The notes under the pieces are model-generated. The model searched no databases and had not been told where the DNA came from. It was given only the letters and a program-made list of their open reading frames with translations. This document shows, one piece after another, positions 12,719-32,917 of a stretch of 40,269 nucleotides of DNA; the first letter of the stretch is position 1; every line of letters begins with the position of its first letter. Origin of the DNA: an uncultured Spirochaetales bacterium (GTDB lineage Bacteria > Spirochaetota > Spirochaetia > CAZPZF01); assembly GCA_964590705.1 (NCBI GenBank), contig CAZPZF010000002.1, positions 1 to 40,269 of the forward strand, written 5' to 3'. The position numbers and the translations under genes are program-made.

Positions 12719-13864
12719 TTACTGTATCTTGAATCCCTCGTTGAACGCCCTGACCAGCCTGGACTTGAGAAGCTGGTTCTCCTTCTTCAGGGTCGATATC
12801 TCGTACTGCTGTGTCTTAATGGTCTCTATTAGATCCCCCCTGGTCAGCGCGCCGCTCTGTAGAAGCGCTTCCACGTCCTGCACCTTGGACTCGAAATCGA
12901 TATCCGCCTCCATCTCCGCGGTCTGGAAACTCTCCTCGACCTGGTCCATGTCGAGGAAGCCCGCGGTTTCCTCTGGCTGCTGGATCAGCTTGTCCGCTAT
13001 CCGGTAGATCGCCTGGGAGAGGACCGCCTGCGGCTTGTAGACGATGATGGGAAGGCGTGAAGAAAGGGCGATATCCTGGAAGTGGTCACGGTAGATGATC
13101 CCGAGATGCTCCACGTCCACATCGAGGTACTCCTTGCAGGAACGTCTGATCTTGGCCGCCTTCTGGGCGTCCGCGGGGTCGTCGAGGAGGTTGAGGATTA
13201 GCTGCGGGTGGAACCCGAAGATTTTCTTCCGGTATTCATCGTACCCTGCCGGATCCTTTTCCTTGATCGCGGCAAGGATCCGGGGAACATACACCTTCTG
13301 CAGGCCCGTGCCTTCCCTGCGCAGCGCCTCCAGGTATTCATACGCGGGGCCATTCTTCTTCAGGGAAGAGGAGAGGATCCGGAAGACCGCGTTCTTGAGA
13401 AAGAGGTACGCGTTCAGCGTCGCGGTGAGGGTTGGCGCGGTGACGATGATGCCCTGGCCTGACGTGAGAAAGCAGTCCATGACCATGTTCCCCGAGCCCG
13501 CGCCCAGATCCATAATGAGGTAGTCCGCCTTAATTTCGAGCAGATTGCGGACCAGCGAGTTTTTCAGAGAGGCTCGGACCGAGGCCATGCCCGGGATCTC
13601 GGCGTCTCCGGGGATGAAGCGCAGCCCGCTGTATTCGGTTTCGACCACGATCTCATCGAGCGTCTCCCCATGGTTTGAAAGATAGGTTCCGATCCCCTTC
13701 TGGACGCCGGAGATTCCGAGCAGGAGGTGGAGATTGGAGGCGCCGAGATCCATGTCCACGAGAAGGACTTCCTTTCCGGCCTGGGAAAGGGCGACGGCAA
13801 GATTGGCCGCGACCAGGGATTTCCCGACACCGCCTTTGCCGCTCGCAATCGGAAGAACCTGCAT
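12719..13864 (-). CDS. MinD/ParA/FlhG-class P-loop ATPase with C-terminal extension
   Basis: MQVLPIASGKGGVGKSLVAANLAVALSQAGKEVLLVDMDLGASNLHLLLG contains the deviant Walker A KGGVGKS. Walker B is DYLIMDLGAG. About 95 extra acidic/coiled-coil residues follow at the C-terminus. Confidence 0.85.
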   Translation of the reverse strand: MQVLPIASGKGGVGKSLVAANLAVALSQAGKEVLLVDMDLGASNLHLLLGISGVQKGIGTYLSNHGETLDEIVVETEYSGLRFIPGDAEIPGMASVRASLKNSLVRNLLEIKADYLIMDLGAGSGNMVMDCFLTSGQGIIVTAPTLTATLNAYLFLKNAVFRILSSSLKKNGPAYEYLEALRREGTGLQKVYVPRILAAIKEKDPAGYDEYRKKIFGFHPQLILNLLDDPADAQKAAKIRRSCKEYLDVDVEHLGIIYRDHFQDIALSSRLPIIVYKPQAVLSQAIYRIADKLIQQPEETAGFLDMDQVEESFQTAEMEADIDFESKVQDVEALLQSGALTRGDLIETIKTQQYEISTLKKENQLLKSRLVRAFNEGFKIQ

Positions 13865-17373: not shown

Positions 17374-17814
17374 CTAGAGCTTGAGGTACTCGTACACTTC
17401 CTTGAGCTTGTCCTCCATCCTCCGAGTGATCGATCTGCCTACCCATACCTGCGGGAATGTGAACAGGAGGAGGAACCCGATGATATCGGTTATAAAGCCG
17501 GGAGTGATCAAAAGCAGGCTTCCGACCAGCGCCCCGGCAAGACGGACGAACTCGTCTCCCGGGTAACAGCCTTCGGCGACACGTGCCTTGATCTGTTCGG
17601 TCATCCGCCTCACCTTACGAACCGAGACGATGAAGCCGAAAAGCCCCGCACCGGCCGTAAGCGCGAGGACGAGATACGTCCCCCACCGTTGACCCAGATA
17701 GAGAAGAAGCGCGAGTTCCCCGATGGGGACGAGGGAATAGAGGAGGAGAAGAAGCATCCCTTTTATTAGAGACCGAGAGTCGAAAAGCCGAAGGATCGAA
17801 CGTATCTCTATCAT
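17374..17814 (-). CDS. fxsA: FxsA family membrane protein
   Basis: LLLLLYSLVPIGELALLLYLGQRWGTYLVLALTAGAGLFGFIV...LAGALVGSLLLITPGFITDIIGFLLLF is the FxsA pattern. Start chosen at the ATG at 17814 (MIEIRS...), because the longer ORF N-terminus (to 18027) looks non-coding. Confidence 0.7.
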   Translation of the reverse strand: MIEIRSILRLFDSRSLIKGMLLLLLYSLVPIGELALLLYLGQRWGTYLVLALTAGAGLFGFIVSVRKVRRMTEQIKARVAEGCYPGDEFVRLAGALVGSLLLITPGFITDIIGFLLLFTFPQVWVGRSITRRMEDKLKEVYEYLKL

Positions 17815-18066
17815 TCCTCCATGGTAGCACATCTCCCCCTTTTGATACAGAGAAAAGGCTTCTTCGGCCGCCCCGCCCTCAGCATGTTTCGAACCGTGCC
17901 CCAAAGCGAGTTTTGGGAAAAATTCATTCATTATTCGCCCAATTTCCTTTCCGTTCCCCTTACCTGTGATTGCATAACCAGGCGCGGTGATTGTATAAAT
18001 ACGCAGGATTTTCAAAACAATGCGCATAAAACAGTTCTATAACAATGAGTAAAATGGAGCGCTGCA

Positions 18067-19239
18067 ATGCCTCGAATCCTGATAACGGGTTGCCCATGGC
18101 AGCAGGCAGAACCGATCGTTGCGCTTCTTCATGACGACTACGTGATCAGACATCGGGAGACTCCTGGCCTCGAACAAGACATCGATCCTCTGGGAGACGC
18201 GGACAAGCCGGACGCGGTCATCCTCGTCTGCAGCGATTATCATGACCGTCCCCTTTCCGATGGCGAGGCATCGTTCATCGTCGGCCTGGGCGAACGGGGG
18301 ATCCCTCTCATCCTCGTGACGGGGAACAGCCGGTTACAGAGTCTCCCGCCTTCCGAGCCTTGGAGGGACCAGAACGCCTCACGATGGATTTCGGAAACAG
18401 TTCCTCTCTACGAGGGATTGCGCGGGATCAACGACTCTGTCAGGCGAGCGATCCTCAAGGGAGCGGCCGGATCTCATGAATCGAAACCGCACCTTCAGGA
18501 TCCCGGCGGCCCCCTTCTCGGAACGAGCAAGGCGATCCGGGAGGTGAACTCCCTCATCATCAAATACGCAGCGAGCAACTTTCCCCTCCTCATCTACGGG
18601 GAAACGGGAACGGGAAAGGAACTCGCCGCCCGTTCGGTGCATCGTTTCTCCAAAAGGGGCAACCGGAGCTTCGTGGCTAGGAACTGCGCCGCGATTCCCT
18701 TGCCCCTCATTGAAACCGAACTCTTCGGAAGTGAACGCGGCGCCTATACGGACGCGATCTCCAGACCGGGCTGCTTTCAGCTGGCGGACAAGGGAAGCCT
18801 TTTCCTCGACGAGATAGGAGACCTTCTACCGACCGGGCAGGCGAAGCTGCTCCGTGCAATAGAGGCGCACGAGATATTGCCGGTCGGCGGAGTTCGAACC
18901 GTTCCGGTGGATGTTCGGATCATATCTGCCACGAACAGAAACCTGAAAAGAGATATGAAGAACCGCCGCTTCAGATCGGACCTCTACTACCGGATCAACA
19001 CCCTTCAGTTATTCATGCCCGCGCTTCGGGAGAGGAAGGAGGACATCCCCCTGCTTCTTGAAGCCTTCCTGCGGGAAGAGGGAGAAACCCGCGGGATCGA
19101 CAGGCCGGCCATGGAGAAACTGCTCGACTATGACTGGCCTGGAAACGTGCGGGAACTCCTCAGCGTAGTCAAACGTGCCTTGGTTTTTTCGCATCGGGAA
19201 ACGATATCCGACGAAGATATCCTCTTCGACCGGGAATAA
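18067..19239 (+). CDS. sigma-54-interaction-domain AAA+ activator with a pseudo-receiver N-terminus and no C-terminal HTH
   Basis: Walker A is YGETGTGKE and Walker B is LFLDEIGDL. The family signature DLYYRIN...PALRERKEDIPLL...WPGNVRELLSV is present. The protein ends about 20 aa after the AAA+ lid (no Fis-type HTH). The loop motif reads GAYTDA (18739-18756) instead of GAFTGA. Confidence 0.85.
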   Translation: MPRILITGCPWQQAEPIVALLHDDYVIRHRETPGLEQDIDPLGDADKPDAVILVCSDYHDRPLSDGEASFIVGLGERGIPLILVTGNSRLQSLPPSEPWRDQNASRWISETVPLYEGLRGINDSVRRAILKGAAGSHESKPHLQDPGGPLLGTSKAIREVNSLIIKYAASNFPLLIYGETGTGKELAARSVHRFSKRGNRSFVARNCAAIPLPLIETELFGSERGAYTDAISRPGCFQLADKGSLFLDEIGDLLPTGQAKLLRAIEAHEILPVGGVRTVPVDVRIISATNRNLKRDMKNRRFRSDLYYRINTLQLFMPALRERKEDIPLLLEAFLREEGETRGIDRPAMEKLLDYDWPGNVRELLSVVKRALVFSHRETISDEDILFDRE

Positions 19240-19249
19240 TCCCGTATGG

Positions 19250-19744
19250 CTAAATGAGTATCCGGATAAATTTGCCCTCAATTACGGGAACAATGGAGCC
19301 ATCGGCCATGGTTCTGAATTCGGCGAGCCGTCCTACTACCAGGACACGGGAATGGAGCGTCAGCTCTGTTTCGGAGCGTCTCCTGCTCCTCCTGGCCGGA
19401 ATGAGCGAAGCGAATTCATCGCCGGAAAACCGAACGATGCAGCGGTACATCCTCACGTCTTCGAGGCCGACCCATTCCCCCTGGATCACCTCGATCTCGC
19501 CGATAAAAGCCTCCCCTTCTCCGCTCAGCACTTCACGCGAGGTTACCGAGCCGTCGATGATGATGAATCTGTCGGTATCCGCCTGATCCTGGTTTCCCCT
19601 GGCTATGAGAAGGTTCAGATCGCGCAGGGTCATGGAGAAATTGACCACCCCGAGAAAATCGTTGACCGATGCCGCGGATACCGCCGCTCCCACGGAAACG
19701 AGAAAAACCGCGCATAGAAAGGAAAGAAGAATACTTTTCTTCAT
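19250..19744 (-). CDS. secreted hypothetical protein
   Basis: MKKSILLSFLCAVFLVSVGAAVSAAS is a signal peptide. A GGAGAGGA Shine-Dalgarno sequence lies 8 nt upstream. No family recognised. Confidence 0.6.
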   Translation of the reverse strand: MKKSILLSFLCAVFLVSVGAAVSAASVNDFLGVVNFSMTLRDLNLLIARGNQDQADTDRFIIIDGSVTSREVLSGEGEAFIGEIEVIQGEWVGLEDVRMYRCIVRFSGDEFASLIPARRSRRRSETELTLHSRVLVVGRLAEFRTMADGSIVPVIEGKFIRILI

Positions 19745-19776
19745 ACTGTCATCCTCTCCTGGCCCAAGATACCGTC

Positions 19777-19805
19777 AGTATAGCAAAAATGCGGCCGTTT
19801 GTCTC
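19777..19805 (-). promoter_or_regulatory. sigma-70-like promoter for the 19250-19744 gene
   Basis: The minus strand reads GAGACA-N17-TATACT, with TGC immediately before the -10 hexamer (extended -10-like). It lies about 32 nt upstream of the ATG. Confidence 0.35.
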
Positions 19806-19872
19806 TGGAATCTCCGCTTCGCGCCGCGGGGTTTCTCGGAAAATTCCTCTTGATAAAAGAGCGTACCGCTGA

Positions 19873-19930
19873 TAGACTTAATCCCGAATCTGATTTCCCG
19901 TATTCTATAGGGATTAATATAGTAAGTCTA
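19873..19930. repeat. nested inverted repeat in a divergent intergenic region
   Basis: TAGACTTA-ATCCC (19873-19885) pairs with GGGAT (19910-19914) and TAAGTCTA (19923-19930). The right arm carries an 8-nt insert. AT-rich context between two divergent promoters. Confidence 0.4.
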
Positions 19931-20048
19931 TATCCGTTTATTCCGACAATAAAAAGGATTGGCACAAGGAGCCCGTTTTTCAACGCGGCTCCGCTTTTAG
20001 GACGATACGAGGAGATTTCAGGTCTTGCAGGTATACACAGCCACTCAT

Positions 20049-20077
20049 TTGACAAAGGAATTATTGATTACTAAGAT
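20049..20077 (+). promoter_or_regulatory. sigma-70-like promoter of the STAS / YbjN-like / pspA operon
   Basis: Perfect -35 TTGACA (20049-20054), a 17-nt spacer, and -10 TAAGAT (20072-20077). About 40 nt upstream of the ATG at 20117. Confidence 0.45.
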
Positions 20078-20116
20078 AGATACAGGCGAATCCCGTGGTC
20101 AATGCAAAGAGGTCCC

Positions 20117-20668
20117 ATGAGTAACAACGATATAGTACCTGGATTTGACGAGGAAAAAGACGACAGCCTTAAAATCCGCCTGCAACGGATCGATACCGTC
20201 GAAGGGTGTCTCGTTCTCTATCTGACCGGCTATATAGACACGTACAATTCGAATTTCTTCCAGAAACGGGTGACCAAGGCTACGGAAGCGGGCTATATCA
20301 GGTTGATCTTTAACTGTGCGGGGCTCAACTATGTGTCGAGTACGGGAATCGGCTCTTTCACCGCTTTCCTAAAAGCGGTCAAGCCCCGCGGAGGAGACCT
20401 CGTTCTTCTCGAGATACAACCGAAAGTATATGAAGTATTCCAGTTGCTGGGATTCTCCCAATTCTTCAACATCAAGGACAACCTGAACGAAGCGGTGGAT
20501 TTCTTCGGTTCCGGAGGCAAGGCCGGAGTCGCCGATATCTTCCCCAAGATCTTCCAATGCCCAATCTGCTCTAAAAAACTGAAGGCGATCAAGGCCGGCC
20601 GGTTCCGCTGCTCAGAGTGCAAGACCATCCTCGCCATCGACAACTCCGGACAGGTTTTCCTAGGTTGA
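20117..20668 (+). CDS. STAS-domain (anti-sigma-factor-antagonist-like) protein fused to a C-terminal zinc ribbon
   Basis: STAS core is LVLYLTGYIDTYNSNFF...IRLIFNCAGLNYVSSTGIGSF...DLVLLEIQPKVYEVFQLLGFSQFF. The C-terminus has CPICSKK-x13-CSECK (CxxC...CxxC). Start taken at MSNNDIV, which has an AAAGAGG Shine-Dalgarno sequence. Confidence 0.8.
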   Translation: MSNNDIVPGFDEEKDDSLKIRLQRIDTVEGCLVLYLTGYIDTYNSNFFQKRVTKATEAGYIRLIFNCAGLNYVSSTGIGSFTAFLKAVKPRGGDLVLLEIQPKVYEVFQLLGFSQFFNIKDNLNEAVDFFGSGGKAGVADIFPKIFQCPICSKKLKAIKAGRFRCSECKTILAIDNSGQVFLG

Positions 20669-20702
20669 CCCCAGAACAGCTGCAGATATTCGGGAGGCGT
20701 CC

Positions 20703-21089
20703 ATGAAATCCAGGGAAAAGATAGAAGGATATCTCATCAACCTGGGCATCACGTTCGAGGAGATAGGTCCTGCGAGCTGGCTCATCAACGATGACGAAAA
20801 AGGCCTTGAACGGGTAATCGTCATCGTCGAAGACCCCCTGGTCATGTTCCGGGTGAAGGTCATGGACCTACCGGCCAAGCGGACCGCGGAATTCATGGAG
20901 AAGCTTCTCCGCCTCAACGCATCCGACCTCGTGCACGGCGCATATGCCTTGGACGAGGACGGCAGCGTTCTGCTTGTAGACACACTGCAGGCCACCACGC
21001 TGGATATCGAGGAATTCCAGGCTTCCCTGGACGCCATAGGCCTCGCATTAGCGCAGCATTATCCCATTCTGTCCGCCTATCGGGAATGA
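20703..21089 (+). CDS. YbjN-like / T3SS-chaperone-like small cytoplasmic protein (tentative)
   Basis: 128 aa. The pattern IEGYLINLGITFEEIGPASWLI...VIVIVEDPLVMFRVKVMDLP...EFMEKLLRLNASDLVHGAYALDEDGSVLLVDTL resembles the YbjN sensory-transduction-regulator fold family. A GGGAGG Shine-Dalgarno sequence is present. Confidence 0.5.
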   Translation: MKSREKIEGYLINLGITFEEIGPASWLINDDEKGLERVIVIVEDPLVMFRVKVMDLPAKRTAEFMEKLLRLNASDLVHGAYALDEDGSVLLVDTLQATTLDIEEFQASLDAIGLALAQHYPILSAYRE

Positions 21090-21125
21090 AGGGTCGGACA
21101 CGGTGAAGAAGAGAGGGAGTTGACT

Positions 21126-21815
21126 ATGGGTTTGTTCGACCGTTTCAAACGCGTTGTAAAATCGAACCTCAACGACATGATCAGCAAAGCTGAAAACCCG
21201 GAAAAGATGCTCAACCAGCTGATCATCGACATGAACGAACAGCTGATAGAGGCCAAGAAGAGTGTGGCATCGGCCATCGCTGACGAGAAGAAGCTGGAAC
21301 GCCAGATGAACGAGCAGCTGAACCAGGCGGAGGAATGGGAACGCAAGGCGGTGCTTGCTCTCAGGGCCGAAAAGGAGGACCTGGCCAAGGAAGCCCTTGT
21401 GAGGAAACAGGACTTCGAGGCCATGGCGACCCAGTACAAGACTCAGTGGGAAGCGCAGCACGCTTCCGTCGAGAAACTCAAAGTCGCGCTCCGTCAGCTG
21501 CAGCAGAAAATAGAAGAAGCGCAGAGGAAGAAAAACCTCCTGGTGGCGCGCGCGAAACGCGCCGACGCCCAGAAGAAGATACAGCAGACCATGGGAAGCT
21601 TCAGCGACACATCCGCGTTCGAGGCTTTCGACCGCATGGCCGCGAAGGTCGAAAAGATCGAAGCTGAAGTGGAAGCCATGCAGGAGATCGAGGGAGCAAC
21701 GATGCAGGACGACCTGGAGAGCAGGTTCAAGGCCCTCGAATCCTCGGGCAAGACCGCGGATCTATTGCTGGAGGATCTGAAAAAGAGACTCCAGGATGAG
21801 TCTTCGCACAACTAA
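21126..21815 (+). CDS. pspA: PspA/IM30/Vipp1 family protein (phage shock protein A)
   Basis: MGLFDRFKRVVKSNLNDMISKAENPEKMLNQLIIDMNEQLIEAKKSVASAIADEKKLERQ... is the canonical PspA N-terminus and coiled coil. A GAGGGAG Shine-Dalgarno sequence lies 8 nt upstream of the ATG at 21126. Confidence 0.9.
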   Translation: MGLFDRFKRVVKSNLNDMISKAENPEKMLNQLIIDMNEQLIEAKKSVASAIADEKKLERQMNEQLNQAEEWERKAVLALRAEKEDLAKEALVRKQDFEAMATQYKTQWEAQHASVEKLKVALRQLQQKIEEAQRKKNLLVARAKRADAQKKIQQTMGSFSDTSAFEAFDRMAAKVEKIEAEVEAMQEIEGATMQDDLESRFKALESSGKTADLLLEDLKKRLQDESSHN

Positions 21816-22521
21816 GGCGGCCATATCCCGCGCGGGTACACCCTCATATCCCCTCAGGCTCAACTGTTTCGGTTTCAACGAAAACGCGACCGCCCGTTAC
21901 GTGAAGAGTCTTTCCAGGGAAAGAACCTTCACCGTTTCATTCTCTTCTGCGCCTGAGGATCCCCTCGCCGTCGATCTCTACCTTGCCCCGTCATCGGCGG
22001 TTAGGGAAGGAAAGCTTCCCGAATCCCTGCTGCGCAGGGAATCTCCTCCCCTCTTCCTTTCGGGTCCGTCGGCCGACCTCCGGAGTGCGTTCCTCATCGG
22101 CTGCGCCGATTTTCTGAAGGAGCCGTGGTCCACAGACGAGCTTATCGCGCGAGCGGAGCGGGCGCTTCGCTATTACCGGTTCCCGGGGATACCCGAGGCG
22201 GTCCGGTTTACGGGCTCGGCGCTCTATTGCGGAATCGGGCAGATTCCCCTGACACCGCACGAAACCCTCATCCTCAGGACCCTCCTCAGGTTCAACGGGG
22301 AACCCGTATCACGGGAGACCCTGTTCATTCTTACGGGAAAAAACGCGGAAGCGGGATCAGGCCGGGGAAAACCAGGCAGATCCGCGGATGTCCATATCGC
22401 GGCGCTCCGAAGGAAGCTCTCCCCCCTCTTTCCGGAGGGGACGGTTCCGATCGGTACGGCTAGGGGACTCGGATACTACATCGAGCCGGGACGCGCGGGC
22501 AGGGCGCCCGATTCCCCATAG
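21796..22521 (+). CDS. OmpR/PhoB-type winged-helix regulator with a degenerate (pseudo-)receiver N-terminus
   Basis: The C-terminal region LTPHETLILRTLLRFNGEPVSRETLF...VHIAALRRKL...IGTARGLGYYIE is the Trans_reg_C pattern. The N-terminal ~120 aa is receiver-sized but lacks the DD pocket and a clear phospho-acceptor. Overlaps pspA by 20 nt. Confidence 0.65.
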   Translation: MSLRTTKAAISRAGTPSYPLRLNCFGFNENATARYVKSLSRERTFTVSFSSAPEDPLAVDLYLAPSSAVREGKLPESLLRRESPPLFLSGPSADLRSAFLIGCADFLKEPWSTDELIARAERALRYYRFPGIPEAVRFTGSALYCGIGQIPLTPHETLILRTLLRFNGEPVSRETLFILTGKNAEAGSGRGKPGRSADVHIAALRRKLSPLFPEGTVPIGTARGLGYYIEPGRAGRAPDSP

Positions 22522-22526
22522 GCAGC

Positions 22527-22558
22527 CCTGTGGATTTCTGTGTATATCCTGTGGATAA
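22527..22558 (+). promoter_or_regulatory. direct repeats CCTGTGGAT x2 (21-bp phasing); the second is a perfect DnaA-box 9-mer TGTGGATAA
   Basis: CCTGTGGAT occurs at 22527-22535 and 22548-22556. TGTGGATAA (reverse complement of TTATCCACA) is at 22550-22558. A third perfect copy lies at 22774-22782. The repeats start 6 nt after the stop of the winged-helix regulator gene. Confidence 0.4.
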
Positions 22559-22790
22559 TCAACAATGTCAATGCGAAAAATACAGATCGGGAAACAAAAT
22601 ATCGCTATTTTACAGGCTAAGGGTATTAACCGATGTTAAGTAGAAACGATTAACTCCTTATCTTGTAAGGTTTTATCTTACACAACCACTCGAACGACTT
22701 CTCAGTCGGAGCAATAAATACCGAAGAAAACGCATATTTCCGTGGGGATGATCGAGGGTTTTTTCAGTCAAATTGTGGATAACTTGTGCA

Positions 22791-23105
22791 TCATTCGACA
22801 ATTACGGCAGTTCCGTAGACCATAAGTTCCGCCGCGCTCTGCATCACGCTCGTTGTGGTAAAGCGGAGGCCCACCACTGCGTTCGCGCCCAGAATTTCAG
22901 CCTCTTCCATCAGGCGGTCCAGCGCCTGCTCCCTCGATTCGGCCATGAGTTTGGTATAATCGGTGATCTCCCCGCCCACCATGTTTTTGAATCCGGCCAT
23001 GATGTCCCTGCCGATATTCCTGGCCCGGATGGTGTTCCCCTTCACGAGCCCGAGCACCTTCGTAATGTTCTTTCCCGGTACCGTATCCGTGGTCACAAGG
23101 ATCAT
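22791..23105 (-). CDS. YbjQ/UPF0145 family protein (putative heavy-metal-binding domain)
   Basis: MILVTTDTVPGKNITKVLGLVKGNTIRARNIGRDIMAGFKNMVGGEI..YTKLMAESREQALDRLMEEAEILGANAVVGLRF is the near-canonical YbjQ pattern. Confidence 0.85.
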   Translation of the reverse strand: MILVTTDTVPGKNITKVLGLVKGNTIRARNIGRDIMAGFKNMVGGEITDYTKLMAESREQALDRLMEEAEILGANAVVGLRFTTTSVMQSAAELMVYGTAVIVE

Positions 23106-23536
23106 TTCATCACCTCTCTGTAACGGTCGCTCTTCCGCTCCCTCATTCTATCAGCGATCGTTACGCCGAGCAAGACGAGCACACCCGCCGCTATTCCGGC
23201 AAAGAGGAGGACCGCAGCGAGGTCCTGTTTCTCCGTCTTGAGGAAGGAAATCACCGCGTACACGACGAGGAGGACGTACGATCCGATGAAAGCGATCTTT
23301 CCGAACAAGGAGAAACCCCTTCGCACACGGTTCTTTTCCAGATCCTCAAACCACTCCCTCCTGGGCCCGGGGAAAGCGACTCCCCTGAGTTCCCGTTTGA
23401 CGGTCAGAAGGTCGATATAGGCCTTCCGGCACGCGTAGCAGCTCTCGATGTGGGAAAGGGTCGCCTCGATCTCCTCCTCCGGCAGTTCGGAGTCGATCAG
23501 CGCCTGCACCTTGAGCCTGGCTTCTTCGCAATTCAT
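23102..23536 (-). CDS. zinc-binding (ZAS, zf-HC2) anti-sigma factor with 2 TM segments and no sizeable extracytoplasmic domain
   Basis: MNCEEARLKVQALIDSELPEEEIEATLSHIESCYACRKAY carries the H-x3-C-x2-C motif. TM segments are IAFIGSYVLLVVYAVISFL and AAVLLFAGIAAGVLVLLGVTIA. ATGA overlaps on both sides. Confidence 0.8.
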   Translation of the reverse strand: MNCEEARLKVQALIDSELPEEEIEATLSHIESCYACRKAYIDLLTVKRELRGVAFPGPRREWFEDLEKNRVRRGFSLFGKIAFIGSYVLLVVYAVISFLKTEKQDLAAVLLFAGIAAGVLVLLGVTIADRMRERKSDRYREVMK

Positions 23537-24129
23537 CCTCTGTCCTCCTCCATTCCCTTCCGGAGCGGATATTCATCGGTCATCGACCGTCCTTCTTCTC
23601 CACCGGAAGCGGCGAGAATCGTCTTCAGGTGCATCCTGGCGTGGTACAGCCGCGACATGACCGTTCCTATGGGAATGTCCAGGATCTCGGCAATCTCCGC
23701 ATACCCGCAGCCGTCGAATTCCTTGAGGACCAGGATCTCCCGATGCGACGGTGAAAGCCGCCTCATGGCTCTGCGTACCGCCTGGGTTCTCTCCTCTCGG
23801 TCAAGAGCCTCTGAGGGCCCGAACCCCGCCGCCGGTACCAGATCGAAATCCGCCTCCGCGGTCGTCTCCCGGTTCCGTTTCTCTATCCGGTTGAGCGATA
23901 AATTCCTGGCGATCTGGTACAGCCACGGGAAAACCGGCCGGTCAGCCTTAAAACGCTCTATGGCCAGAAAGGCCTTCATGAAGGTCTCCTGGGCGACATC
24001 AGCCGCGTCATCCGTGTTGCGGAGAAAGGAGTAGGCAACGTTGTAGATCCGCCGGGAGTAGAGGGAAACGAGACTGCCGAAGGCCTTCCTGTCTCCCCCC
24101 TGGGCCGCGATGATGATGGCGCTCTCCAT
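23533..24129 (-). CDS. ECF (group 4) sigma-70 family sigma factor
   Basis: Region 2 is FGSLVSLYSRRIYNVAYSFLRNTDDAADVAQETFMKAF...FPWLYQIARN. Region 4 is LSPSHREILVLKEFDGCGYAEIAEILDIPIGTVMSRLYHAR. Confidence 0.9.
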   Translation of the reverse strand: MESAIIIAAQGGDRKAFGSLVSLYSRRIYNVAYSFLRNTDDAADVAQETFMKAFLAIERFKADRPVFPWLYQIARNLSLNRIEKRNRETTAEADFDLVPAAGFGPSEALDREERTQAVRRAMRRLSPSHREILVLKEFDGCGYAEIAEILDIPIGTVMSRLYHARMHLKTILAASGGEEGRSMTDEYPLRKGMEEDRG

Positions 24130-24337: not shown

Positions 24338-26935
24338 TTACTCGATCTTCCTTATGACATGGTTGCTGTAGTCGCAGACATAGAGGTTTTCGCCGTCGGT
24401 CGTGATCCCCTCGGGATTGTTGAAATACGCCGCGGTTCCGGTACCGTCCGCCCAGTCGCCAACCGTGTCCGCGCCCGCGATGGTATCGACCTCCCGGGAC
24501 GATATCTCGATGCTGCGTACCGTGTGGCTTCCGTTGGTATCGGTCACGTAGAGATACTCGCCGTCGCAGGTGATCATGTAGGGTCCCCTGAACCGGGCCG
24601 TCGTTCCCACGCCATCCGCGTGGGAGCTGGTTCCCTTGAGTCCGGCAAGGGTGCTCACCTCACCGGTCGAAAGGTCGACGGTCCTGATCGCGTAGTTGAC
24701 ACTGTCGCACACGTAGAGGAACAGCCCGTCCGTGGTGATTCCTTGGGGAGTGTTGAACTGGGCCTCAAGCCCGTCCCTGCTATCGGTGGTTCCCGCGATG
24801 CCCACCATACCCGCTATCGTGGTCACCTCCTGCGTGGCAAGGCTGATCTTCCGCACGATGTGGCTGGCGTCGGTCACATAGAGAAAAGCGCCGTCAGAGG
24901 TGATGCCGCGGGGAGAGTTGAACCTGGCCTCGCCGATCCCGTCCGCGCTTCCGGCTACCCCGGCCACGCCGGAGAAGGTTGAAACCTCCCAGGAATCGAT
25001 CTCGATTTTCCGGATGGTTTGGTTGCCGGTATCGCACACATACAGGGCGTCTCCCGCGATGGTTATGCCCGTGGGGGAGGAGAACCGGGCGGACGTGCCT
25101 GTGCCGTCGGTCGATCCGGAGGAGTTCGGCGCGCCCGAGATGGTCGTCACCGCTCCTGTGGCCGGATCGATCCTGCGGATCGTATGCCAGTGGTCAGTGG
25201 CGTAGAGATAGGTGCCGTCGGTCGTCATGCCGACAGGTACCTGGAGAAGGGCGCCGACGCCCGTACCGTTGCCGAACAGGTGTTCCCCGTGCGAGCCGGC
25301 AAAGGTGGTCGTCGCCTTGGTGGAGGTGTTCACCTTGCGGATCGCCGAGTTGTTCCGATCGACCACGTACAGGGTCGTACCGGAAATGGCCAGCCCTGAG
25401 GGTTCGTTGAACCGGGCAGCGGCGGCGGATCCGTCCGCGAAACCCGCGCCCAGGGAACCGGTCAGGGTGGTCACGGTGTAGGGCGACGTGGTGGTCATGG
25501 TCCTGATGGCGTCGTTCCCCGTTTCCACGATGTAGAGGGTGGTTCCGGAGAGGATGAGGTCGAAGGGATAGTTGAAACTGGCGCTTGTGCCTGCGGCGTC
25601 AATACGGGTCCTGTCATTGTACACGCCCGCGCGGGTCGTGACAGCGCCGGTGGCTATGACCACCTCGCGGATCGTGGAGGCGGAGTGGTCGGCGACCCAG
25701 AGAACCGTTCCGTCGGTGGCCAATCCCATGGGTTGGTCGAATTGACCGACACCCGCCGCGCCGTCAGTGGAACCCGGGCTGTCCGTGATACCGGCGAGGG
25801 TGGTCACCGCGAAGGTGCCGGTGAGGGTTATCTTCCGGATGAGGTGATTGTTCTGGTCCGCGACGAAGAGAGAGGCGGGAGAGCCAGTCACATATGCCAG
25901 TCCGTTCGGATTGTCGAAGCTCGCCAGGGTGCCTACCGCTTCGTTGCCGTTGCCGGTTGTGTTGGCGGTGCCCGCTATCAGATCCACGGTGTCAGCCGTG
26001 AGGCCGATCCGCGCGATCGTGTGACTACCAATACAGCTCACGTAGAGGTAGTCGGTCCCGTCCGTCGCCAAGCCAACGGGGCTGTTGAACTGAGCCGCGT
26101 CCCGGGTGGTGCCGTTCGTGCAGCCAGCGGTCCCGCTGCCCGCGAAAGTCGTCGCCTCTCCGGTCGACGTGTTGAGGCGGCGGATCCGGTGGTTGTTCGT
26201 ATCGGCTATATAGAGGTAGGTGCCGATGAGCACCGCGCGCTGGGGGTAGTTGAACAGGGCGCCCACGCCGGTCCCGTCGAAATGGTGGTTCCCAATTTCC
26301 GCGGAGCCGCAGAGGGTCGTCACGGTACCGCTCAGGGTGAGGGCACCCTCCTGGATGGAGCCGCCCGGATTCTGCGGAAGGAATTCAGCTGTCACCACCT
26401 TGTTCCCGTCCATGGTGAGGGTCTTGGGATTGGTGCTTCCCGTGGCGTCCCCGCTCCAACCGCTGAAGGCGTACCCGGAGGCGGGCGTCGCGGTCAGCGA
26501 TACCGAGCTGCCGCTCGCGTACGACGCGGAAACAGGGGAAACCGCGACGGTTCCGCTGTCGACCGGCGAGACGTTCACGGTCAGGCTGTAGGTGGCTGCT
26601 GGGATCTCCGTAAAGGTGGCCGTTACCGCCTTGTCCGCCGTCATTTCAACCGCGATCATTCCATAGCTGCCCCCGGCCGCGACATCGTCCACGGTCCAAG
26701 AGGAGAAAGAATATCCCTCGGCGGGCACCGCCGCGAGGATGACCGTCTCTCCCTCCTCGTATGTCGAGGTCTCGGAGGCGGCCGGTACCGCTGTCACCGT
26801 TCCCGCGGCTTCCGGGGTCACGGTCACCGTCAACATGTAGGTCACCGGCGGTTCCGGTTCGGGACAGCCCTGAACGAGGAATGCCGCGATGGCCGCCATG
26901 AGGATCGAAACAATCCGCAAGGTTCCGCTTTTCAT
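24338..26935 (-). CDS. large lipoprotein: two InlB-B-repeat-like Ig domains plus 12 NHL repeats (two predicted 6-bladed beta-propellers)
   Basis: Start taken at MKSGTLRIVSILMAAIAAFLVQGC (lipobox LVQGC; AGGAGAG Shine-Dalgarno sequence upstream of the ATG at 26935). Two units resemble YxLTVxVxPxxxGTV...GYxFSxW. I count twelve repeats of the form F(N/D)xPxG(L/I)xxDGxxLYVxDxxNHxIRKI. Confidence 0.85.
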   Translation of the reverse strand: MKSGTLRIVSILMAAIAAFLVQGCPEPEPPVTYMLTVTVTPEAAGTVTAVPAASETSTYEEGETVILAAVPAEGYSFSSWTVDDVAAGGSYGMIAVEMTADKAVTATFTEIPAATYSLTVNVSPVDSGTVAVSPVSASYASGSSVSLTATPASGYAFSGWSGDATGSTNPKTLTMDGNKVVTAEFLPQNPGGSIQEGALTLSGTVTTLCGSAEIGNHHFDGTGVGALFNYPQRAVLIGTYLYIADTNNHRIRRLNTSTGEATTFAGSGTAGCTNGTTRDAAQFNSPVGLATDGTDYLYVSCIGSHTIARIGLTADTVDLIAGTANTTGNGNEAVGTLASFDNPNGLAYVTGSPASLFVADQNNHLIRKITLTGTFAVTTLAGITDSPGSTDGAAGVGQFDQPMGLATDGTVLWVADHSASTIREVVIATGAVTTRAGVYNDRTRIDAAGTSASFNYPFDLILSGTTLYIVETGNDAIRTMTTTSPYTVTTLTGSLGAGFADGSAAAARFNEPSGLAISGTTLYVVDRNNSAIRKVNTSTKATTTFAGSHGEHLFGNGTGVGALLQVPVGMTTDGTYLYATDHWHTIRRIDPATGAVTTISGAPNSSGSTDGTGTSARFSSPTGITIAGDALYVCDTGNQTIRKIEIDSWEVSTFSGVAGVAGSADGIGEARFNSPRGITSDGAFLYVTDASHIVRKISLATQEVTTIAGMVGIAGTTDSRDGLEAQFNTPQGITTDGLFLYVCDSVNYAIRTVDLSTGEVSTLAGLKGTSSHADGVGTTARFRGPYMITCDGEYLYVTDTNGSHTVRSIEISSREVDTIAGADTVGDWADGTGTAAYFNNPEGITTDGENLYVCDYSNHVIRKIE

Positions 26936-27168
26936 TTTTACTCTCCTTGTCAAATCTCTGAGGCGTATATGGTTTGAAAAGGGGCCGTCGTTCCGAAGGC
27001 GGCCGCTCCGGGTTTTCTATGACAGATTCCATGCCAAGAGAGCGAAAGAGAACGTATTCACCAAGCAGAATATTTCTTTACCAGATATAAAATTGCTGGC
27101 GAGCTGACAGAAAGGGAATACAGCGCTTCCAAACCCGTCGGAAAACAGAGGCGGATCCATCTCTGATC

Positions 27169-27246: not shown

Positions 27247-29301
27247 ATGCGAACCGGAACGCGCGGGCTCCTTATCCTGTGCCTCCTCTGCCTCTCCCTG
27301 CTCTGTGGGGGCGCGGATCTCCGGGCGGACAGCGGCCGGGAAGCCGAACCTTCACAACCGAGCTCTTCGGCCGCGGTATCCGAGGCCGGGCACGCCATGG
27401 ATCGGATGCTCCTCCTCGCGGACCGCGAGGGATCATATTCCCTGACGCCCTCGTTCCTATACCTGGAGGATCCATCCGGCGCCATAACCCTCGCGGAGGC
27501 GGTCGCAGCCGCCGAAGCCGGAGGCTTTACCGCCCCGCCGGAGGGGAAACCGTCCTTCGGTTACACCGGATCCGCCTACTGGGTCAGGTTCACAGCGGTA
27601 AACGGAACAGCGGACCAGGGATCGTGGATACTCCGGATAAACTACTCGTGGTTCCGGTCCGTTCGGCTCTATGCTCCCACCGCTGATGCGGGTTCCACGG
27701 CAGCAGCGGGCGCTGATACCGGATACACGATGCGGGAGACCGGGTATCGTATGCCGGTCTCCACCCGAGACATCAAGGCGAGGCAGTTCCTCTTCGACCT
27801 CTACATCCCGCCGGGAGAATCCAGAACCTATTACCTCCGTTTCTCGACAACGGACCTCATGATCCTGGACATGACCCTGTCATCATCCAGGGCATACCTT
27901 GCCGAGGACCATGAAAGCCAACTCTGGTACGGGATCTTCTTCGGGATACTCCTCATCATGGTTCTCTTCAACCTGTTGTTGTTTATCTTCCTCAAGGAAA
28001 AGAGCTACCTCTATTTTTCCTTGTTCATCTTCTTCGCCGTCGTCCACCTCCTGCAGGAGTCGTGTCTCTTCTACGAGTACCTTCACGCGCTTCCCGATTG
28101 GCTGAAATTCGAGCGGTATTTCATCTATCAGAGTGCCATGGTCTTTTTCGGAATCCTCTTCACCGTGAGCTTCCTCGATATTCGCCGGAAAATGCCGCTT
28201 ATCCACACGATCTGCGTCATCCTTGGAGCGTTCTGCGTGGCCACAATCCCGATGAACATCCTCCTCACCGACGCCATCCTCGAAGCGTTCTCCATGGCGC
28301 TCTGGATCACCGCGATCGCTGTCTCCATTCTCGCGGCCGCCATCACCATGGCCAGAAAAACAGGCTCGGCCCTCTTCTTCGCCGTCGGGTGGGGGCCATT
28401 CATCGTCGGAACCGTGCTCGCCGCGACGATCAATTCCGATTCGGTACTCATGTCACCCCATGACTTCGTGGACAGATACGGTCAGCTGGCGGGGATCTCC
28501 CTCTCCGCCCTCCTCTTCTCCGCCGCGCTCGCGGACCGGTACCGCGGCATCCGCAGGGAAAAGGAGATCGCCGCCGAGGTGAACCTCCGCCAGAAGGAGT
28601 TCTTCATCAACCTCGCCCATGAGACGAAAACACCGCTCACCCTCATCAGGAACTACCTGGACGAATACATTTCCGCTCACGGGACGACGCGGGAGCTCGC
28701 GGTGATCAAAGGCAACATCGACAAGCTGCTACAGGACATGGTCAACTTCTTCGACCTGCAGCGTCTCAGCATGGGTAAGGGGATATCGGGAGAATCGGTT
28801 GTCGTGAATCTTTCCGCGTATCTGCGGGAAAAACAGGATATTGCCGCCCAAACGGCTCGGATCAGCGGTCTTTCCCTGGCAGGAGACATACAGCCCGGGC
28901 TCCACGTACACGCGGATCCCCTTGCCCTCGAACGGATCGTGAACAACCTCCTGGAAAACGCCTTCAAATACAACCCTTCGGGCGGGCATGTCTCCCTCAC
29001 GCTTTCAGCGGGCTGTAAAAACGCCCGGCTGACCGTCACGGACGACGGTCCGGGGATACCGGAGGACAAGCTGGAGACGATCTTCGTCCCCTACTACCAG
29101 GTATCGGGCAAGAAGAAGAACATCCAGGGAATCGGCCTGGGTCTCGTGATCGCACGCGGTGCTGCGTGGGAGATGGGGGGGACATCCACGCGGCGAACAA
29201 CAGGGACGGCGGCTGCTCGTTCGTCGTTACCCTACCATTGCATCAGATCTCCCCAAGCGAACAAGCCCTCGAGATCAACCGTAAGGAGATGCGCCCGCTG
29301 A
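27247..29301 (+). CDS. 7TMR-DISM sensor histidine kinase; last ~40 codons of this ORF are out of frame (frameshift at the G7 tract 29175-29181)
   Basis: Signal peptide, then a 7TMR-DISMED2-like ectodomain (FGYTGSAYWVRFTAVN), 7 TM segments, H-box NLAHETKTPLTLI, N-box NNLLENAFKYN and G boxes DDGPGIP / GIGLGLVIARG. After ...AAWEMGG the reading becomes nonsense (TSTRRTTGTAAARSS...). Confidence 0.8.
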   Translation: MRTGTRGLLILCLLCLSLLCGGADLRADSGREAEPSQPSSSAAVSEAGHAMDRMLLLADREGSYSLTPSFLYLEDPSGAITLAEAVAAAEAGGFTAPPEGKPSFGYTGSAYWVRFTAVNGTADQGSWILRINYSWFRSVRLYAPTADAGSTAAAGADTGYTMRETGYRMPVSTRDIKARQFLFDLYIPPGESRTYYLRFSTTDLMILDMTLSSSRAYLAEDHESQLWYGIFFGILLIMVLFNLLLFIFLKEKSYLYFSLFIFFAVVHLLQESCLFYEYLHALPDWLKFERYFIYQSAMVFFGILFTVSFLDIRRKMPLIHTICVILGAFCVATIPMNILLTDAILEAFSMALWITAIAVSILAAAITMARKTGSALFFAVGWGPFIVGTVLAATINSDSVLMSPHDFVDRYGQLAGISLSALLFSAALADRYRGIRREKEIAAEVNLRQKEFFINLAHETKTPLTLIRNYLDEYISAHGTTRELAVIKGNIDKLLQDMVNFFDLQRLSMGKGISGESVVVNLSAYLREKQDIAAQTARISGLSLAGDIQPGLHVHADPLALERIVNNLLENAFKYNPSGGHVSLTLSAGCKNARLTVTDDGPGIPEDKLETIFVPYYQVSGKKKNIQGIGLGLVIARGAAWEMGGTSTRRTTGTAAARSSLPYHCIRSPQANKPSRSTVRRCAR

Positions 29302-30473
29302 CTGGACGTACAGCTGTGATTCCGGCAGCGGCTCCCGCCGCGCCCGGGAAGCAGGAGGAGGCGGCCGCGGACGGCTTCGCGGCCCAGGGCGCGGAACCCC
29401 TGAGCGTTCTCGTGGTCGAGGACAATCGGGATCTTCTCGAACTCCTGTGCCTGAAACTTGGCCGGTCATTCCTGGTCCACGCCGCGGCCAACGGAATCGA
29501 GGCTCTTCGCGTTCTGGAGAGCATAGCGCCTCCTGACGCGATCGTCTCGGATCTGATGATGGACGGAATGGACGGCATGGAGCTCTTCGACAAGTTGCGC
29601 GAGAACAAACGCTACAACGCCATCCCGTTCCTCTTCGTGACGGCCCGAAACGACGAAGGAGAGCGGGCGGCCAGCCTGGAAAAAGGGGAGATCGATTTCA
29701 TCTACAAGCCCTTCTCGATGGACGAGCTCCAGTCCAAGATAGAAGCCCTCCTCCGATACGGAGAGGCGAGAAGGAAGATCAACGAACGGGAAAAGGCGTC
29801 GGCGCTCGGCATGGCCCTTGGGGGGATCGCGCACGAAATATTCAATCCCCTGAGCGGGATAAGCGCTCCACTCTCGGCTTTGAAGAAGATCTTCTTCACG
29901 GCGGACAGGCCGCCGGGCTTCGAGATGAAAGCCGAGAAACACTTCCGCTTCATCGACGAAAACATCCTGCGTATCGAGAACGCGGTTACCGTCATGAAGA
30001 CCCTCGCCTCCGACCGCCAGTTCGACGAGGTTCCTCTCCCGATCGGGGAGATCGTTTCACGAGCGGCCGCCTCGGCGGGACTTTCCGAAGACGGCCCGGT
30101 CAGGCTCGTGACCCGGGTCGAAAAGGGAACGGAGATCCTGGGCGACCGGGAGGGGATCTATCAGGTGATGAGAAACCTTCTGGCCAACGCGCTTGACGCG
30201 ATTCCCGCGGAAGGGACCATAACAGTCGTGGTCGAAAACCATGACGGAAACGTCGTCATGACTGTTTCGGACACGGGCAGGGGAATCGGAAAGGGAGAGC
30301 TCGATCTGATCTTCGAGCCGTTTTATACGACCAAAGAGGGAAAGAGGGGAATGGGAATGGGATTGTTCATCGTGCGACAGCTGTGCCTGAAGATGTCCTG
30401 GAACATCTCGGTCGAATCGATGGAGGGGACGGGAACGGTGTTCACCATCAGCCAAAAGAGGACACTTGCATGA
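29166..30473 (+). CDS. frame-shifted continuation: end of HATPase 1, then a receiver domain and a second HisKA-HATPase kinase module
   Basis: This frame begins GDGGDIHAANNRDGGCSFVVTLPL (the missing HATPase_c end). REC follows (LVVEDNRDLLELL...IVSDLMMDGMDGMELF...FLFVTA...IYKPF). Next is H-box LGGIAHEIFNPL. Last come NLLANALDA / SDTGRGI / GMGMGLFIV. The TGA overlaps the next ATG. Confidence 0.8.
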   Translation: MGDGGDIHAANNRDGGCSFVVTLPLHQISPSEQALEINRKEMRPLTGRTAVIPAAAPAAPGKQEEAAADGFAAQGAEPLSVLVVEDNRDLLELLCLKLGRSFLVHAAANGIEALRVLESIAPPDAIVSDLMMDGMDGMELFDKLRENKRYNAIPFLFVTARNDEGERAASLEKGEIDFIYKPFSMDELQSKIEALLRYGEARRKINEREKASALGMALGGIAHEIFNPLSGISAPLSALKKIFFTADRPPGFEMKAEKHFRFIDENILRIENAVTVMKTLASDRQFDEVPLPIGEIVSRAAASAGLSEDGPVRLVTRVEKGTEILGDREGIYQVMRNLLANALDAIPAEGTITVVVENHDGNVVMTVSDTGRGIGKGELDLIFEPFYTTKEGKRGMGMGLFIVRQLCLKMSWNISVESMEGTGTVFTISQKRTLA

Positions 30474-31861: not shown

Positions 31862-31945
31862 GCGGGCAGCTCCCCGCCGGGAAGCGCAGCCCGGCCCGTC
31901 ATCGGGATATTCGCGCGGTTGCATTACGATACCGGCCGTGATACC

Positions 31946-32917
31946 ATGGAACCGGTGAAGAAATACATCCTGTTTATCGCGCGCATGGTCCTGACCGCCG
32001 TTGTACTCTCGGCGGTCATTACCGCCGTCATCGCCACGGTACTCTGGAGCCTCTCCCACAACCCCGCGTTCAGGGGTACGGGACCCACGTTCCTCGAGCT
32101 TGTCCCTCGGGCAGCGAAAACCGCGGCTCCATTTTCCGTCTTTCTCGCCGTCTTTCTCCTCTCCTATCTGACCTATCGAAAACTAAGGATCGTCCATTTC
32201 ATGTTGGCTCTTGTCCTCTCGTTCGCGATGGTAGGAGGATCGGTCATCGGCTTGACCTATCTGAAAACCGAAACGATCGAGAGCGGGCGGCACGCCGAAC
32301 CCTTCATCGGAACCTACATCCATCGGCTGGAGGGGAAAACCCTCTATATTGAATCCTCGGAGGGAAACGAGCTCAGGAGCGTCGTCGTGATCGACAGCGG
32401 CACCGAGGGGAAACGCTTCTCCTTCCAGCCTCGCGGAACGGTGGACCCCGGCGCCGGGGAGATCCGTTTTCCGGACGGCACGGTCGTTCCCGTCGAACCT
32501 GAAAACCCCCTGTTTTCACCATTGTTCACCGCACCACCGAGGGTATCCGCCCTCCTGGAAGATATCGGCTACCTCTCCCGCTCCCTGCACGAGACCTGGA
32601 CGGAATCCTTCTTCCTCTTCTGTCTGTACGCGGGATCCCTGTGCCTGTTCTGCGTGAGCTGTTCCCTCTTCTCCGCCATCACGAACTGGCCGATCGTCAA
32701 CCTGATCCTGATCCTCTGCTCGGCCCGGTTCTTCGTCTTTCTTCCCCGCTTCCTCTCCGGAGGCATGGCAAAGGCAATGTCGAAAACCCTGACCGGGGCC
32801 GAGCCCGGCACCACGCTCCTCGCCTCGATCTTCATCATCCTCTCGGTCCTTCTCATAGGATGGGATCTCCTGTTCGTGAACAAGGGCAGGGGCAGGAAGG
32901 AGAAAACCGATGGCTGA
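31946..32917 (+). CDS. membrane protein with 3 TM + soluble domain + 3 TM topology (LptF/LptG-like topology; speculative)
   Basis: Hydrophobic segments flank a ~110-aa beta-rich central segment (FIGTYIHRLEGKTLYIESSEGNELRSVVVIDSG...IRFPDGTVVPVEP). ATG at 31946 preferred over the TTG at 31919. I see no clear sequence motif, so the family call rests on topology only. Confidence 0.6.
   Translation: MEPVKKYILFIARMVLTAVVLSAVITAVIATVLWSLSHNPAFRGTGPTFLELVPRAAKTAAPFSVFLAVFLLSYLTYRKLRIVHFMLALVLSFAMVGGSVIGLTYLKTETIESGRHAEPFIGTYIHRLEGKTLYIESSEGNELRSVVVIDSGTEGKRFSFQPRGTVDPGAGEIRFPDGTVVPVEPENPLFSPLFTAPPRVSALLEDIGYLSRSLHETWTESFFLFCLYAGSLCLFCVSCSLFSAITNWPIVNLILILCSARFFVFLPRFLSGGMAKAMSKTLTGAEPGTTLLASIFIILSVLLIGWDLLFVNKGRGRKEKTDG

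Follow-up and report, generated by a model that had tools for sequence, protein, structure and literature searches.

How is a PspA protein controlled in a bacterium in which its gene keeps company with none of the partners known from the model systems? In every domain of life, membranes rely on PspA/IM30/ESCRT-III proteins for protection and remodelling, and control of PspA is understood in a few model lineages only: proteobacteria with PspF, firmicutes with LiaRS, and actinobacteria with ClgR. The question is raised here by a four-gene locus of an uncultured Spirochaetales bacterium, found in a stretch of 40,269 nucleotides (nt) that we call the window (GenBank assembly GCA_964590705.1, contig CAZPZF010000002.1, positions 1 to 40,269 of the forward strand). 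In this locus, pspA stands in a row with genes for a STAS protein, a small chaperone-like protein, and an OmpR-type regulator; a first description, made from the sequence letters and hereafter called the sequence-only reading, had seen in it a self-contained module for sensing and effecting envelope stress. With a little better than even confidence, we lean towards a Spirochaetia-specific Psp-type module, in which a CesT/Tir chaperone and PspA form a pair nested in a lineage-specific regulatory cassette. The cassette consists of the STAS protein, the regulator, a receiver-AAA+ activator devoid of a DNA-binding domain, an OB-fold protein, and often FxsA, and its members have stayed linked through several independent rearrangements.

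Organization of the Locus and Its Promoter

The list of open reading frames (ORFs) of the window gives four successive genes on the + strand. They encode a STAS protein with a C-terminal four-cysteine zinc ribbon (20117–20668; PF01740, TIGR00377), a CesT/Tir-type small chaperone-like protein (20703–21089; PF22550 CesT_Tir_1, with a weaker YbjN match), a PspA/IM30 family protein (21126–21815; PF04012), and an OmpR/PhoB-family regulator made of a pseudo-receiver and a winged helix (21796–22521; PF00486). Initiation codons had to be revised in two cases. The ORF tool started the STAS gene at 20102; the start is probably the ATG at 20117, giving a protein of 183 amino acids (aa), because orthologues begin at MSNND, and AGAGG lies just 5′ of this ATG. 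For PspA, the TTG at 21120 chosen by the tool was rejected and the ATG at 21126 was used. The STAS and CesT-like genes are then separated by 34 nt (20669–20702), the CesT-like gene and pspA by 36 nt (21090–21125, counted to ATG 21126), and pspA shares 20 nt (21796–21815) with the regulator gene. No strong terminator-like site was found on the + strand between the four genes; inside the operon, the single such site is a weak stem of 5 bp within the regulator gene, and another lies at the stop codon of that gene.

The sigma-70-type promoter TTGACA-N17-TAAGAT (20049–20077, + strand) matches 10 of 12 positions and is conserved in orthologues. Of 62 distinct upstream regions from orthologous loci, 60 carry such a promoter; the TTGACA is perfect in 54, and the spacer measures 17 nt in 48. 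In shuffled sequences taken as a control, the average count was 5 and the highest 10; the family consensus reads ATTTGACAAA ... TAATAT. The ORFs and the sequence thus agree with the sequence-only reading on the four co-directional genes, the promoter in front of them, both spacers, and the overlap. The four genes are an operon-like unit that is conserved across many spirochaete genomes.

We also searched the upstream DNA for other control sites. An operator for the regulator at the operon promoter was rejected, the 9-mer TATACACAG at 20033–20041 being a two-mismatch match that is not conserved. Searching for TGGCAC-N5-TTGC, we found no sigma-54 promoter with two mismatches or fewer in 19745–20101, and no conserved one 5′ of the STAS gene, the OB-fold gene, or the activator gene in 86 loci; matches within activator genes are the coding sequence of the receiver beta3 strand.

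Conservation and Rearrangements across Spirochaetes

In all, 166 related loci were compared, every named one of which belongs to Spirochaetota. A scan of one genome per species returned about 540 relatives, among which the best 80 loci are all from Spirochaetota and include Treponema primitia, and a metagenome scan seeded with the STAS protein brought 80 further loci; all were re-annotated with profiles made from the window's proteins. Gene order in other genomes had been chosen beforehand as the point on which the proposed operon could be refuted, and this order is conserved in many of them. That of the four genes recurs in most of the 166 loci, contigs carrying homologues of 64–78% identity have the same order, upstream genes included, and about 57 of the 80 loci with enough flank read activator (+), OB-fold (−), STAS, CesT, PspA, and regulator exactly as the window does. 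Median identity to the window is 84% for the STAS protein, which is the most conserved product of the locus, 64% for PspA, 58% for the CesT-like protein, 38% for the activator, 32% for the OB-fold protein, and 28% for the regulator.

One may ask whether such conservation is anything more than inherited synteny, with PspA functionally unlinked to the regulators that flank it. The named loci are all of one phylum, and the housekeeping genes upstream, for a CtpB-like protease, RsmE, and WecG, are syntenic too. We nevertheless hold this explanation to be very unlikely: the linkage survives at least four different rearrangements and persists down to 28–38% protein identity for the fast-evolving members, and the genes concerned run in one direction behind a single conserved promoter, close together and with an overlap.

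The rearranged loci show which parts of the locus travel together. In eight of them (L019, L021, L024, L029, L030, L037, L059, and L060), the activator gene stands immediately before the CesT, PspA, and regulator genes, all four being co-directional, and the STAS and OB-fold genes are absent; the activators of this L019 subclade share 44% identity with window-type activators versus 33% with the activator paralogue of the window. Five loci without CesT have STAS-PspA-regulator. Termite-gut Treponema keep only CesT-PspA, and T. primitia (L073) has STAS-CesT-PspA. Lastly, six loci (L088, L104, L133, L144, L151, and L157) have neither CesT nor PspA; there, the STAS gene abuts the regulator gene with no room for other genes between them, and the activator and OB-fold genes are still upstream. 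As the STAS and regulator genes are adjacent also without CesT-PspA, they resemble a regulatory cassette in which the PspA pair is usually lodged.

This raises the possibility of an independent signalling cassette (STAS, regulator, activator, and OB-fold protein) whose main job is unrelated to PspA, with CesT-PspA as inserted and co-expressed cargo. The six loci just described argue for it, as does the occurrence of CesT-PspA alone in termite-gut Treponema, and the higher identity of the STAS protein (84%, to be compared with 64% for PspA and 58% for CesT) suggests constraints beyond the role of a PspA accessory. We give this explanation some weight but consider it rather less probable than not, since the great majority of loci hold CesT-PspA exactly between STAS and regulator, since activator and regulator still flank CesT-PspA in the subclade that lost STAS, and since pspA overlaps the regulator gene.

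Other genes may settle within the locus: a short-chain dehydrogenase gene lies between the OB-fold and STAS genes in L167 (939–1667; assembly labelled Salinispira pacifica), a locus with at least the STAS, OB-fold, and activator genes, and the same insertion 5′ of STAS is seen in L031, L038, L039, L044, and others.

The STAS Protein and the Case for Partner Switching

The STAS ORF (20102–20668) matches PF01740 with an E value of 4e-23 and the anti-sigma antagonist superfamily TIGR00377 with 62.8 bits against a cutoff of 53.45. Matches to zinc-ribbon profiles C-terminal to the STAS domain are weak; each of the four cysteines is found in 67 of the 69 distinct orthologues compared. Among solved structures, those of SpoIIAA and RsbV are the nearest relatives, and when the protein is aligned to SpoIIAA (1auz), Ser80 falls on Ser58, the phosphorylated residue of SpoIIAA; Ser80 is invariant in the 69 orthologues. 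The sequence-only reading had called the protein one of the partner-switching type, which agrees with what appears, from these alignments, to be a homologue of SpoIIAA-type anti-sigma antagonists that has retained the phospho-serine. The likeness to the SpoIIAA/RsbV systems lies in this STAS fold with its conserved phosphorylatable serine.

Could the locus then be a case of classical partner switching, in which the STAS protein antagonises an anti-sigma kinase of an alternative sigma factor, and PspA, CesT, and the regulator merely share its promoter? Besides the nearest solved relatives and the invariant serine, this explanation can call on an operon for an extracytoplasmic function (ECF) sigma factor, an anti-sigma factor, and YbjQ, which converges on the locus from its 3′ side in the window and in about 15 related loci. 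That operon is, however, absent from most loci, the anti-sigma factor it encodes is of the zf-HC2 membrane type and not a STAS-binding kinase, and neither the 40-kb window nor the conserved neighbourhoods of 10 kb yielded a gene for an RsbW/SpoIIAB-type kinase or a PP2C phosphatase. We consider classical partner switching unlikely.

The CesT/Tir-Type Protein and PspA

The product of 20703–21089 had been announced as YbjN-like, a name that has to be given up: the best match is PF22550 CesT_Tir_1 (E = 4e-26), followed by PF10722 YbjN at only 3e-6 and PF05932 CesT at 5e-4. A sequence search of the family against the PDB returned nothing significant. Among 597 homologues, the few that carry a source name are all from Spirochaetes. 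The CesT gene is directly 5′ of pspA and on the same strand in 86 of 86 CesT-anchored loci, and CesT followed by PspA is also found in most STAS-anchored loci with enough downstream sequence.

PspA (21126–21815) matches PF04012 over 220 of 220 profile positions (E = 2e-54) and stays under the equivalog cutoffs, with 160 bits versus 243 for TIGR02977 and 101 versus 336 for NF007974; on the LiaH model NF045984, it scores 83 bits against a cutoff of 380. Judged by these profiles, it is a member of the Pfam family and not an equivalog of proteobacterial PspA.

The pairing of CesT and PspA is not new. In the fullest survey of Psp systems, Ravi et al. (bioRxiv 10.1101/2020.09.24.301986) describe, in passages of their text, the CesT/Tir-PspA dyad as a conserved core that occurs alone or in larger operons, and propose a chaperone-like role. 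Our locus shares with the dyad operons a CesT/Tir-superfamily gene immediately 5′ of pspA on the same strand. According to the same passages, zinc-ribbon proteins are listed among PspA partners, and the larger operons add Band-7/flotillin proteins, an AAA+ ATPase with a beta-propeller, polyamine enzymes, or TPM proteins (bioRxiv 10.1101/2020.09.24.301986). The words “STAS” and “anti-sigma” each have no occurrence in its main text, supplements aside; the passages describe neither a pseudo-receiver regulator nor a sigma-54 activator without a DNA-binding domain, they bring in spirochaetes only for classic pspABC and PspF variants, and they leave transcription factors out of the detailed analysis (bioRxiv 10.1101/2020.09.24.301986). 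Judged against this main text and general knowledge, the regulatory arrangement around PspA would so far be undescribed.

A Regulator with a Dead Receiver

The regulator matches PF00486 Trans_reg_C over residues 149–228 (E = 2e-9), and the Pfam scan gave no Response_reg match; alignments to NCBIfam models begin at about residues 85–100. What, then, is the N-terminal half? Searched against the PDB, the family profile finds many OmpR/PhoB structures, with E values down to 4e-22; it aligns full-length to DrrB (1p2f; profile positions 6–209, E = 4e-21) and to the alpha4-beta5-alpha5 region of many others. The residues needed for phosphorylation are lost. Of 69 sequences, 59 have Pro and one has Asp at the phospho-acceptor position, 68 have Gly in place of the Thr, and 64 have Glu or Asp in place of the Lys; the window regulator is also without the acidic pair (FNEN). 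The best conserved part of the pseudo-receiver is the alpha4-beta5-alpha5 stretch AFL.GC.DYL+EPW..EEL..R. The DrrB alignment and the residue counts confirm what had been said of this protein from its sequence, namely that it is OmpR-type with a receiver-sized N-terminus lacking the phospho-acceptor pocket. A word-indexed search found only two homologues because the family evolves fast, and the AlphaFold2 model, built on two input sequences, is too poor to use (predicted local distance difference test score, pLDDT, of 51 overall and below 50 for residues 1–126).

Since it has lost its phosphorylation-site residues, we class the regulator as an atypical, phosphorylation-independent member of the OmpR/PhoB family. 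Such regulators are known in ChxR and HP1043/HsrA. By their description, these are alike in having a receiver fold without phospho-acceptor chemistry, a conserved alpha4-beta5-alpha5 face, and an intact winged helix; the regulator described here differs from them in being fixed in a PspA operon.

A Sigma-54 Activator, an OB-Fold Protein, and FxsA as Conserved Neighbours

Two genes upstream of the operon lies a sigma-54 activator gene (18067–19239, + strand; PF00158, 8e-58), whose product has a degenerate receiver and an AAA+ domain but no C-terminal DNA-binding domain. No helix-turn-helix (HTH) Pfam match was found in it, and the tail after GNVRE has a median of about 25 aa, as compared with 92 aa in the second, complete activator of the window. 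The loop that contacts sigma-54 reads GAYTDA in the window and fits GA[FY]T[GD]A in 55 of 57 orthologues, frequently as GAFTDA or GAYTDA in place of GAFTGA. The activator scores 205 bits on TIGR02974, where the cutoff is 444. In most orthologues the receiver is a canonical phospho-receiver, and all are without the DNA-binding domain. Sigma-54 activators of this build are known: FlgR of Helicobacter and CtcC of Chlamydia also consist of a receiver and an AAA+ domain that end shortly after the sensor II/lid region; these are not linked to PspA, and the window activator has additionally lost residues of the receiver active site. The earlier claim that no pspF-type promoter is present stands, none having been found, but a gene for a sigma-54 activator does lie close by.

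The OB-fold gene (19250–19744, − strand) is divergent from the operon and present in most loci. It encodes a predicted secreted protein of 164 aa that matches nothing in Pfam or NCBIfam and, by sequence, nothing significant in the PDB. Its AlphaFold2 model (pLDDT 88.5) has an N-terminal hydrophobic helix of the signal type and a five-strand barrel, for which the top Foldseek matches are the OB folds of SSB and PriB (E about 1e-5). The gene has its own conserved sigma-70-type promoter, of the type CTTGACC-N17-TAnnAT, divergent from that of the operon.

FxsA, an inner-membrane protein family (17374–18027, − strand; PF04186, 3e-21, residues 96–202), is a frequent neighbour; its true start is probably near 17814 because orthologues have about 150 aa. 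It is relocated yet still nearby in two loci, standing after the regulator gene in L104 (5268–5714) and co-directional, upstream of the activator, in L144 (1650–2090). That FxsA is retained despite a changed position or strand hints that this membrane protein is part of the same system. Because the activator, the OB-fold protein, and FxsA are conserved neighbours, the module cannot be called self-contained, as the sequence-only reading had done. The word “sensing” had likewise been an inference; no sensor domain or stress-responsive operator was identified at the locus, and the promoter is near-consensus.

The build of the two regulatory proteins suggests another arrangement, a split enhancer-binding protein analogous to PspF, in which activator and regulator would pair through their receiver-type domains and PspA, with CesT, would inhibit the AAA+ domain. 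The activator lacks a DNA-binding domain and the regulator a working receiver, so that the winged helix would supply DNA binding; the activator has retained the sigma-54 contact loop, and the alpha4-beta5-alpha5 face is what is best conserved in the pseudo-receiver. The two genes co-occur or are co-absent: both are present in 77 loci and neither in 8, with the regulator only in 8 and the activator only in 1, after correction of three mis-scored loci (before which the counts were 74 for both and 11 for regulator only). In the eight loci of the L019 subclade, both flank CesT-PspA in one operon. Against this stand the regulator-only loci and the lack of a conserved −24/−12 promoter near the locus; a sigma-54-like motif beside the repeats found 3′ of the regulator gene (described below) was rejected, as only 7 of the 57 distinct sequences contain it, and it resembles a third, degenerate copy of the repeat. 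Moreover, by our reading of the alignment, the activator residue at the place of Trp56 of E. coli PspF, needed for PspA docking, is Gly in the window and Arg in the family consensus. We consider a split enhancer-binding protein quite improbable.

Comparison with Known PspA Systems

No PspB/PspC, LiaI/LiaF, or Toastrack protein was found among the window ORFs scanned (outside the locus, ORFs of at least 140 aa), and the earlier statement that this PspA is without its classical partners stands in so far. Each of the known systems shares something with the locus. With PspF-PspABC, it is a PspA effector with a sigma-54 AAA+ activator gene in the conserved neighbourhood, and PspA feeding back on its own regulator would be a plausible parallel. 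The promoter there is of the sigma-54 type, whereas it is of the sigma-70 type here; PspF is an AAA+ domain plus a C-terminal HTH with no receiver, whereas the activator here has a receiver and no HTH; PspB and PspC were not found among the window ORFs scanned, and PspA is below the equivalog cutoff.

The feedback models for PspA-PspF and PspA-ClgR are established; in the actinobacterial system, PspA has been reported to bind ClgR. The likeness is that there, too, the operon with pspA encodes a DNA-binding regulator. This regulator, ClgR, is a Cro-like HTH protein encoded by the first gene, whereas ours is an OmpR-type pseudo-receiver protein encoded by the last, with no PspM or PspN; the composition of the ClgR-PspA-PspM-PspN operon is outlined in passages of bioRxiv 10.1101/2020.09.24.301986, as is the PspF system.

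The firmicute LiaIH-LiaGFSR system likewise combines a PspA homologue with a receiver-containing DNA-binding regulator. LiaR is phosphorylatable and paired with the kinase LiaS, whereas the receiver here is dead and no kinase is adjacent; LiaI, LiaF, and Toastrack are missing, and the LiaH score quoted above is far from its cutoff. Lacking what defines PspF-PspABC and Lia, and having what defines the CesT/Tir-PspA dyad, the locus is best described as a lineage-specific elaboration of a known pair.

Proposed Mechanism and What Weighs against It

How could such a module work? We propose that PspA would be the membrane-binding effector, and that a dimer of the CesT-like protein would hold or deliver PspA or a PspA partner. 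The regulator, which is presumably not phosphorylatable, would most likely be dimeric at all times and have its activity adjusted by contact with another protein. For this contact PspA comes first among the candidates, because it controls PspF and ClgR elsewhere and because the genes overlap, which is a putative sign of translational coupling; coupling of pspA and the regulator gene would fix the PspA:regulator ratio. The input switch is likely to be the STAS protein, whose phospho-serine is intact and which would be controlled by a kinase and phosphatase encoded elsewhere; the output probably reaches promoters in other parts of the genome through the sigma-54 activator.

Several observations weigh against a PspA-centred module of this kind. 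The protein contacts and the control of PspA are proposed from comparing sequences and gene order. The STAS-regulator pairs without CesT-PspA mean that the cassette may serve other targets, and part of the conservation, with all named loci in one phylum, could be inherited synteny. On the side of the input, no partner kinase or phosphatase of the STAS protein was found in the window or in the 10-kb neighbourhoods; on that of the output, no conserved sigma-54 (−24/−12) promoter is present in the neighbourhood, and in the window activator the acidic pair of the receiver has gone from DDD to GCP and the Lys to Glu. In the operon's upstream region, only the −35 and −10 elements carry information; as there is no conserved operator near the promoter, autoregulation by the regulator is unsupported, and the near-consensus promoter suggests high constitutive expression instead of stress induction. 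Taken with the STAS-regulator pairs that do without PspA, this promoter and the missing operator speak against a simple stress-induced, autoregulated operon.

Repeat Clusters 3′ of the Regulator Gene

Directly 3′ of the regulator stop codon lies a cluster of three 11-bp direct repeats that resemble DnaA boxes, TTATCCACAGG, ATATACACAGA, and AATCCACAGGG (22531–22566, − strand). A distal cluster, TGCACAAG and TTATCCACA (22774–22790, − strand), adjoins the stop codon of the convergent YbjQ gene. In the window, the two are about 222 bp apart, with a spacer of 38% GC versus 58% for the window, and they hold perfect DnaA-box 9-mers (TTATCCACA). Of 106 distinct loci, 59 have the motif TTATCCAC in the first 300 nt 3′ of the regulator gene, a rate about 17-fold that of the background; in orthologous loci, the boxes are on the minus strand at two fixed offsets, about 220–225 nt apart. 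The clusters are at the same position in L001, L003, L005, L009, L012, L018, L062, L088, and about 50 other loci. The element is restricted to certain lineages, and several subclades that possess the regulator do not have it.

Three explanations of these clusters were tried and rejected. Against a replication origin, the GC skew does not switch at 22.5 kb, and the genes on either side point towards the site. Against a small RNA between the clusters, the window has no Rfam match and no tRNA or tmRNA, and the folding z-scores are −0.06 and −0.31. Against a small protein, the interior is poorly conserved and has just short, unremarkable ORFs. The repeats could be a cluster of DnaA boxes or a candidate binding site (operator) of the OmpR-type regulator. 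A more elaborate form of the split enhancer-binding protein builds on the latter: its assembly or ATPase activity would be gated by PspA-CesT and by the phosphorylatable STAS protein, and the TTATCCACA-type 3′ repeats could be the winged-helix sites. We regard this as having only a slim chance of being right; if true, spirochaetes would have a route of their own, independent of PspF, by which the state of the membrane acts on sigma-54 transcription.

Other Genes of the Window

The genes convergent on the PspA operon (22791–24129, − strand) form the YbjQ/zf-HC2 anti-sigma/ECF sigma operon; this trio follows the regulator gene in about 15 related loci and is absent from most. Next to it, an 871-aa protein (24338–26953, − strand) with InlB B-repeat-like domains and many NHL repeats is likely a surface protein. 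A second signalling cluster (27247–31861) encodes a 7TMR-DISM histidine kinase, a hybrid receiver-kinase, and the complete receiver-AAA+ sigma-54 activator (loop GAYSGA). This cluster, the ECF operon, and the NHL-repeat protein gene have apparently been inserted; in L003 and L005, the regulator gene is directly followed by relatives of the window genes at 31919–35437, for an unknown protein, a 570-aa protein, and a DnaJ-domain protein. Further upstream, a flagellar-type cluster on the − strand (5558–6547, 9762–12716, and 12719–13864) encodes a sigma-70-family factor (regions 2–4), a 984-aa FapA protein with four FapA_N repeats, and a ParA/MinD-like ATPase.

A Fourth Regulatory Context for PspA

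If we return to the question of how PspA is controlled in these bacteria, the locus is a fourth regulatory context for PspA, next to those of PspF, LiaRS, and ClgR, and it is widespread in uncultured Spirochaetia and their cultured relatives. It comes with testable candidates: a near-invariant STAS-zinc-ribbon protein, a dead-receiver regulator, a sigma-54 activator without a DNA-binding domain, and a predicted periplasmic OB-fold protein. The published CesT/Tir-PspA pair can thus be embedded in a dedicated signalling cassette, and the value of the finding is that of a well-defined hypothesis drawn from comparison.

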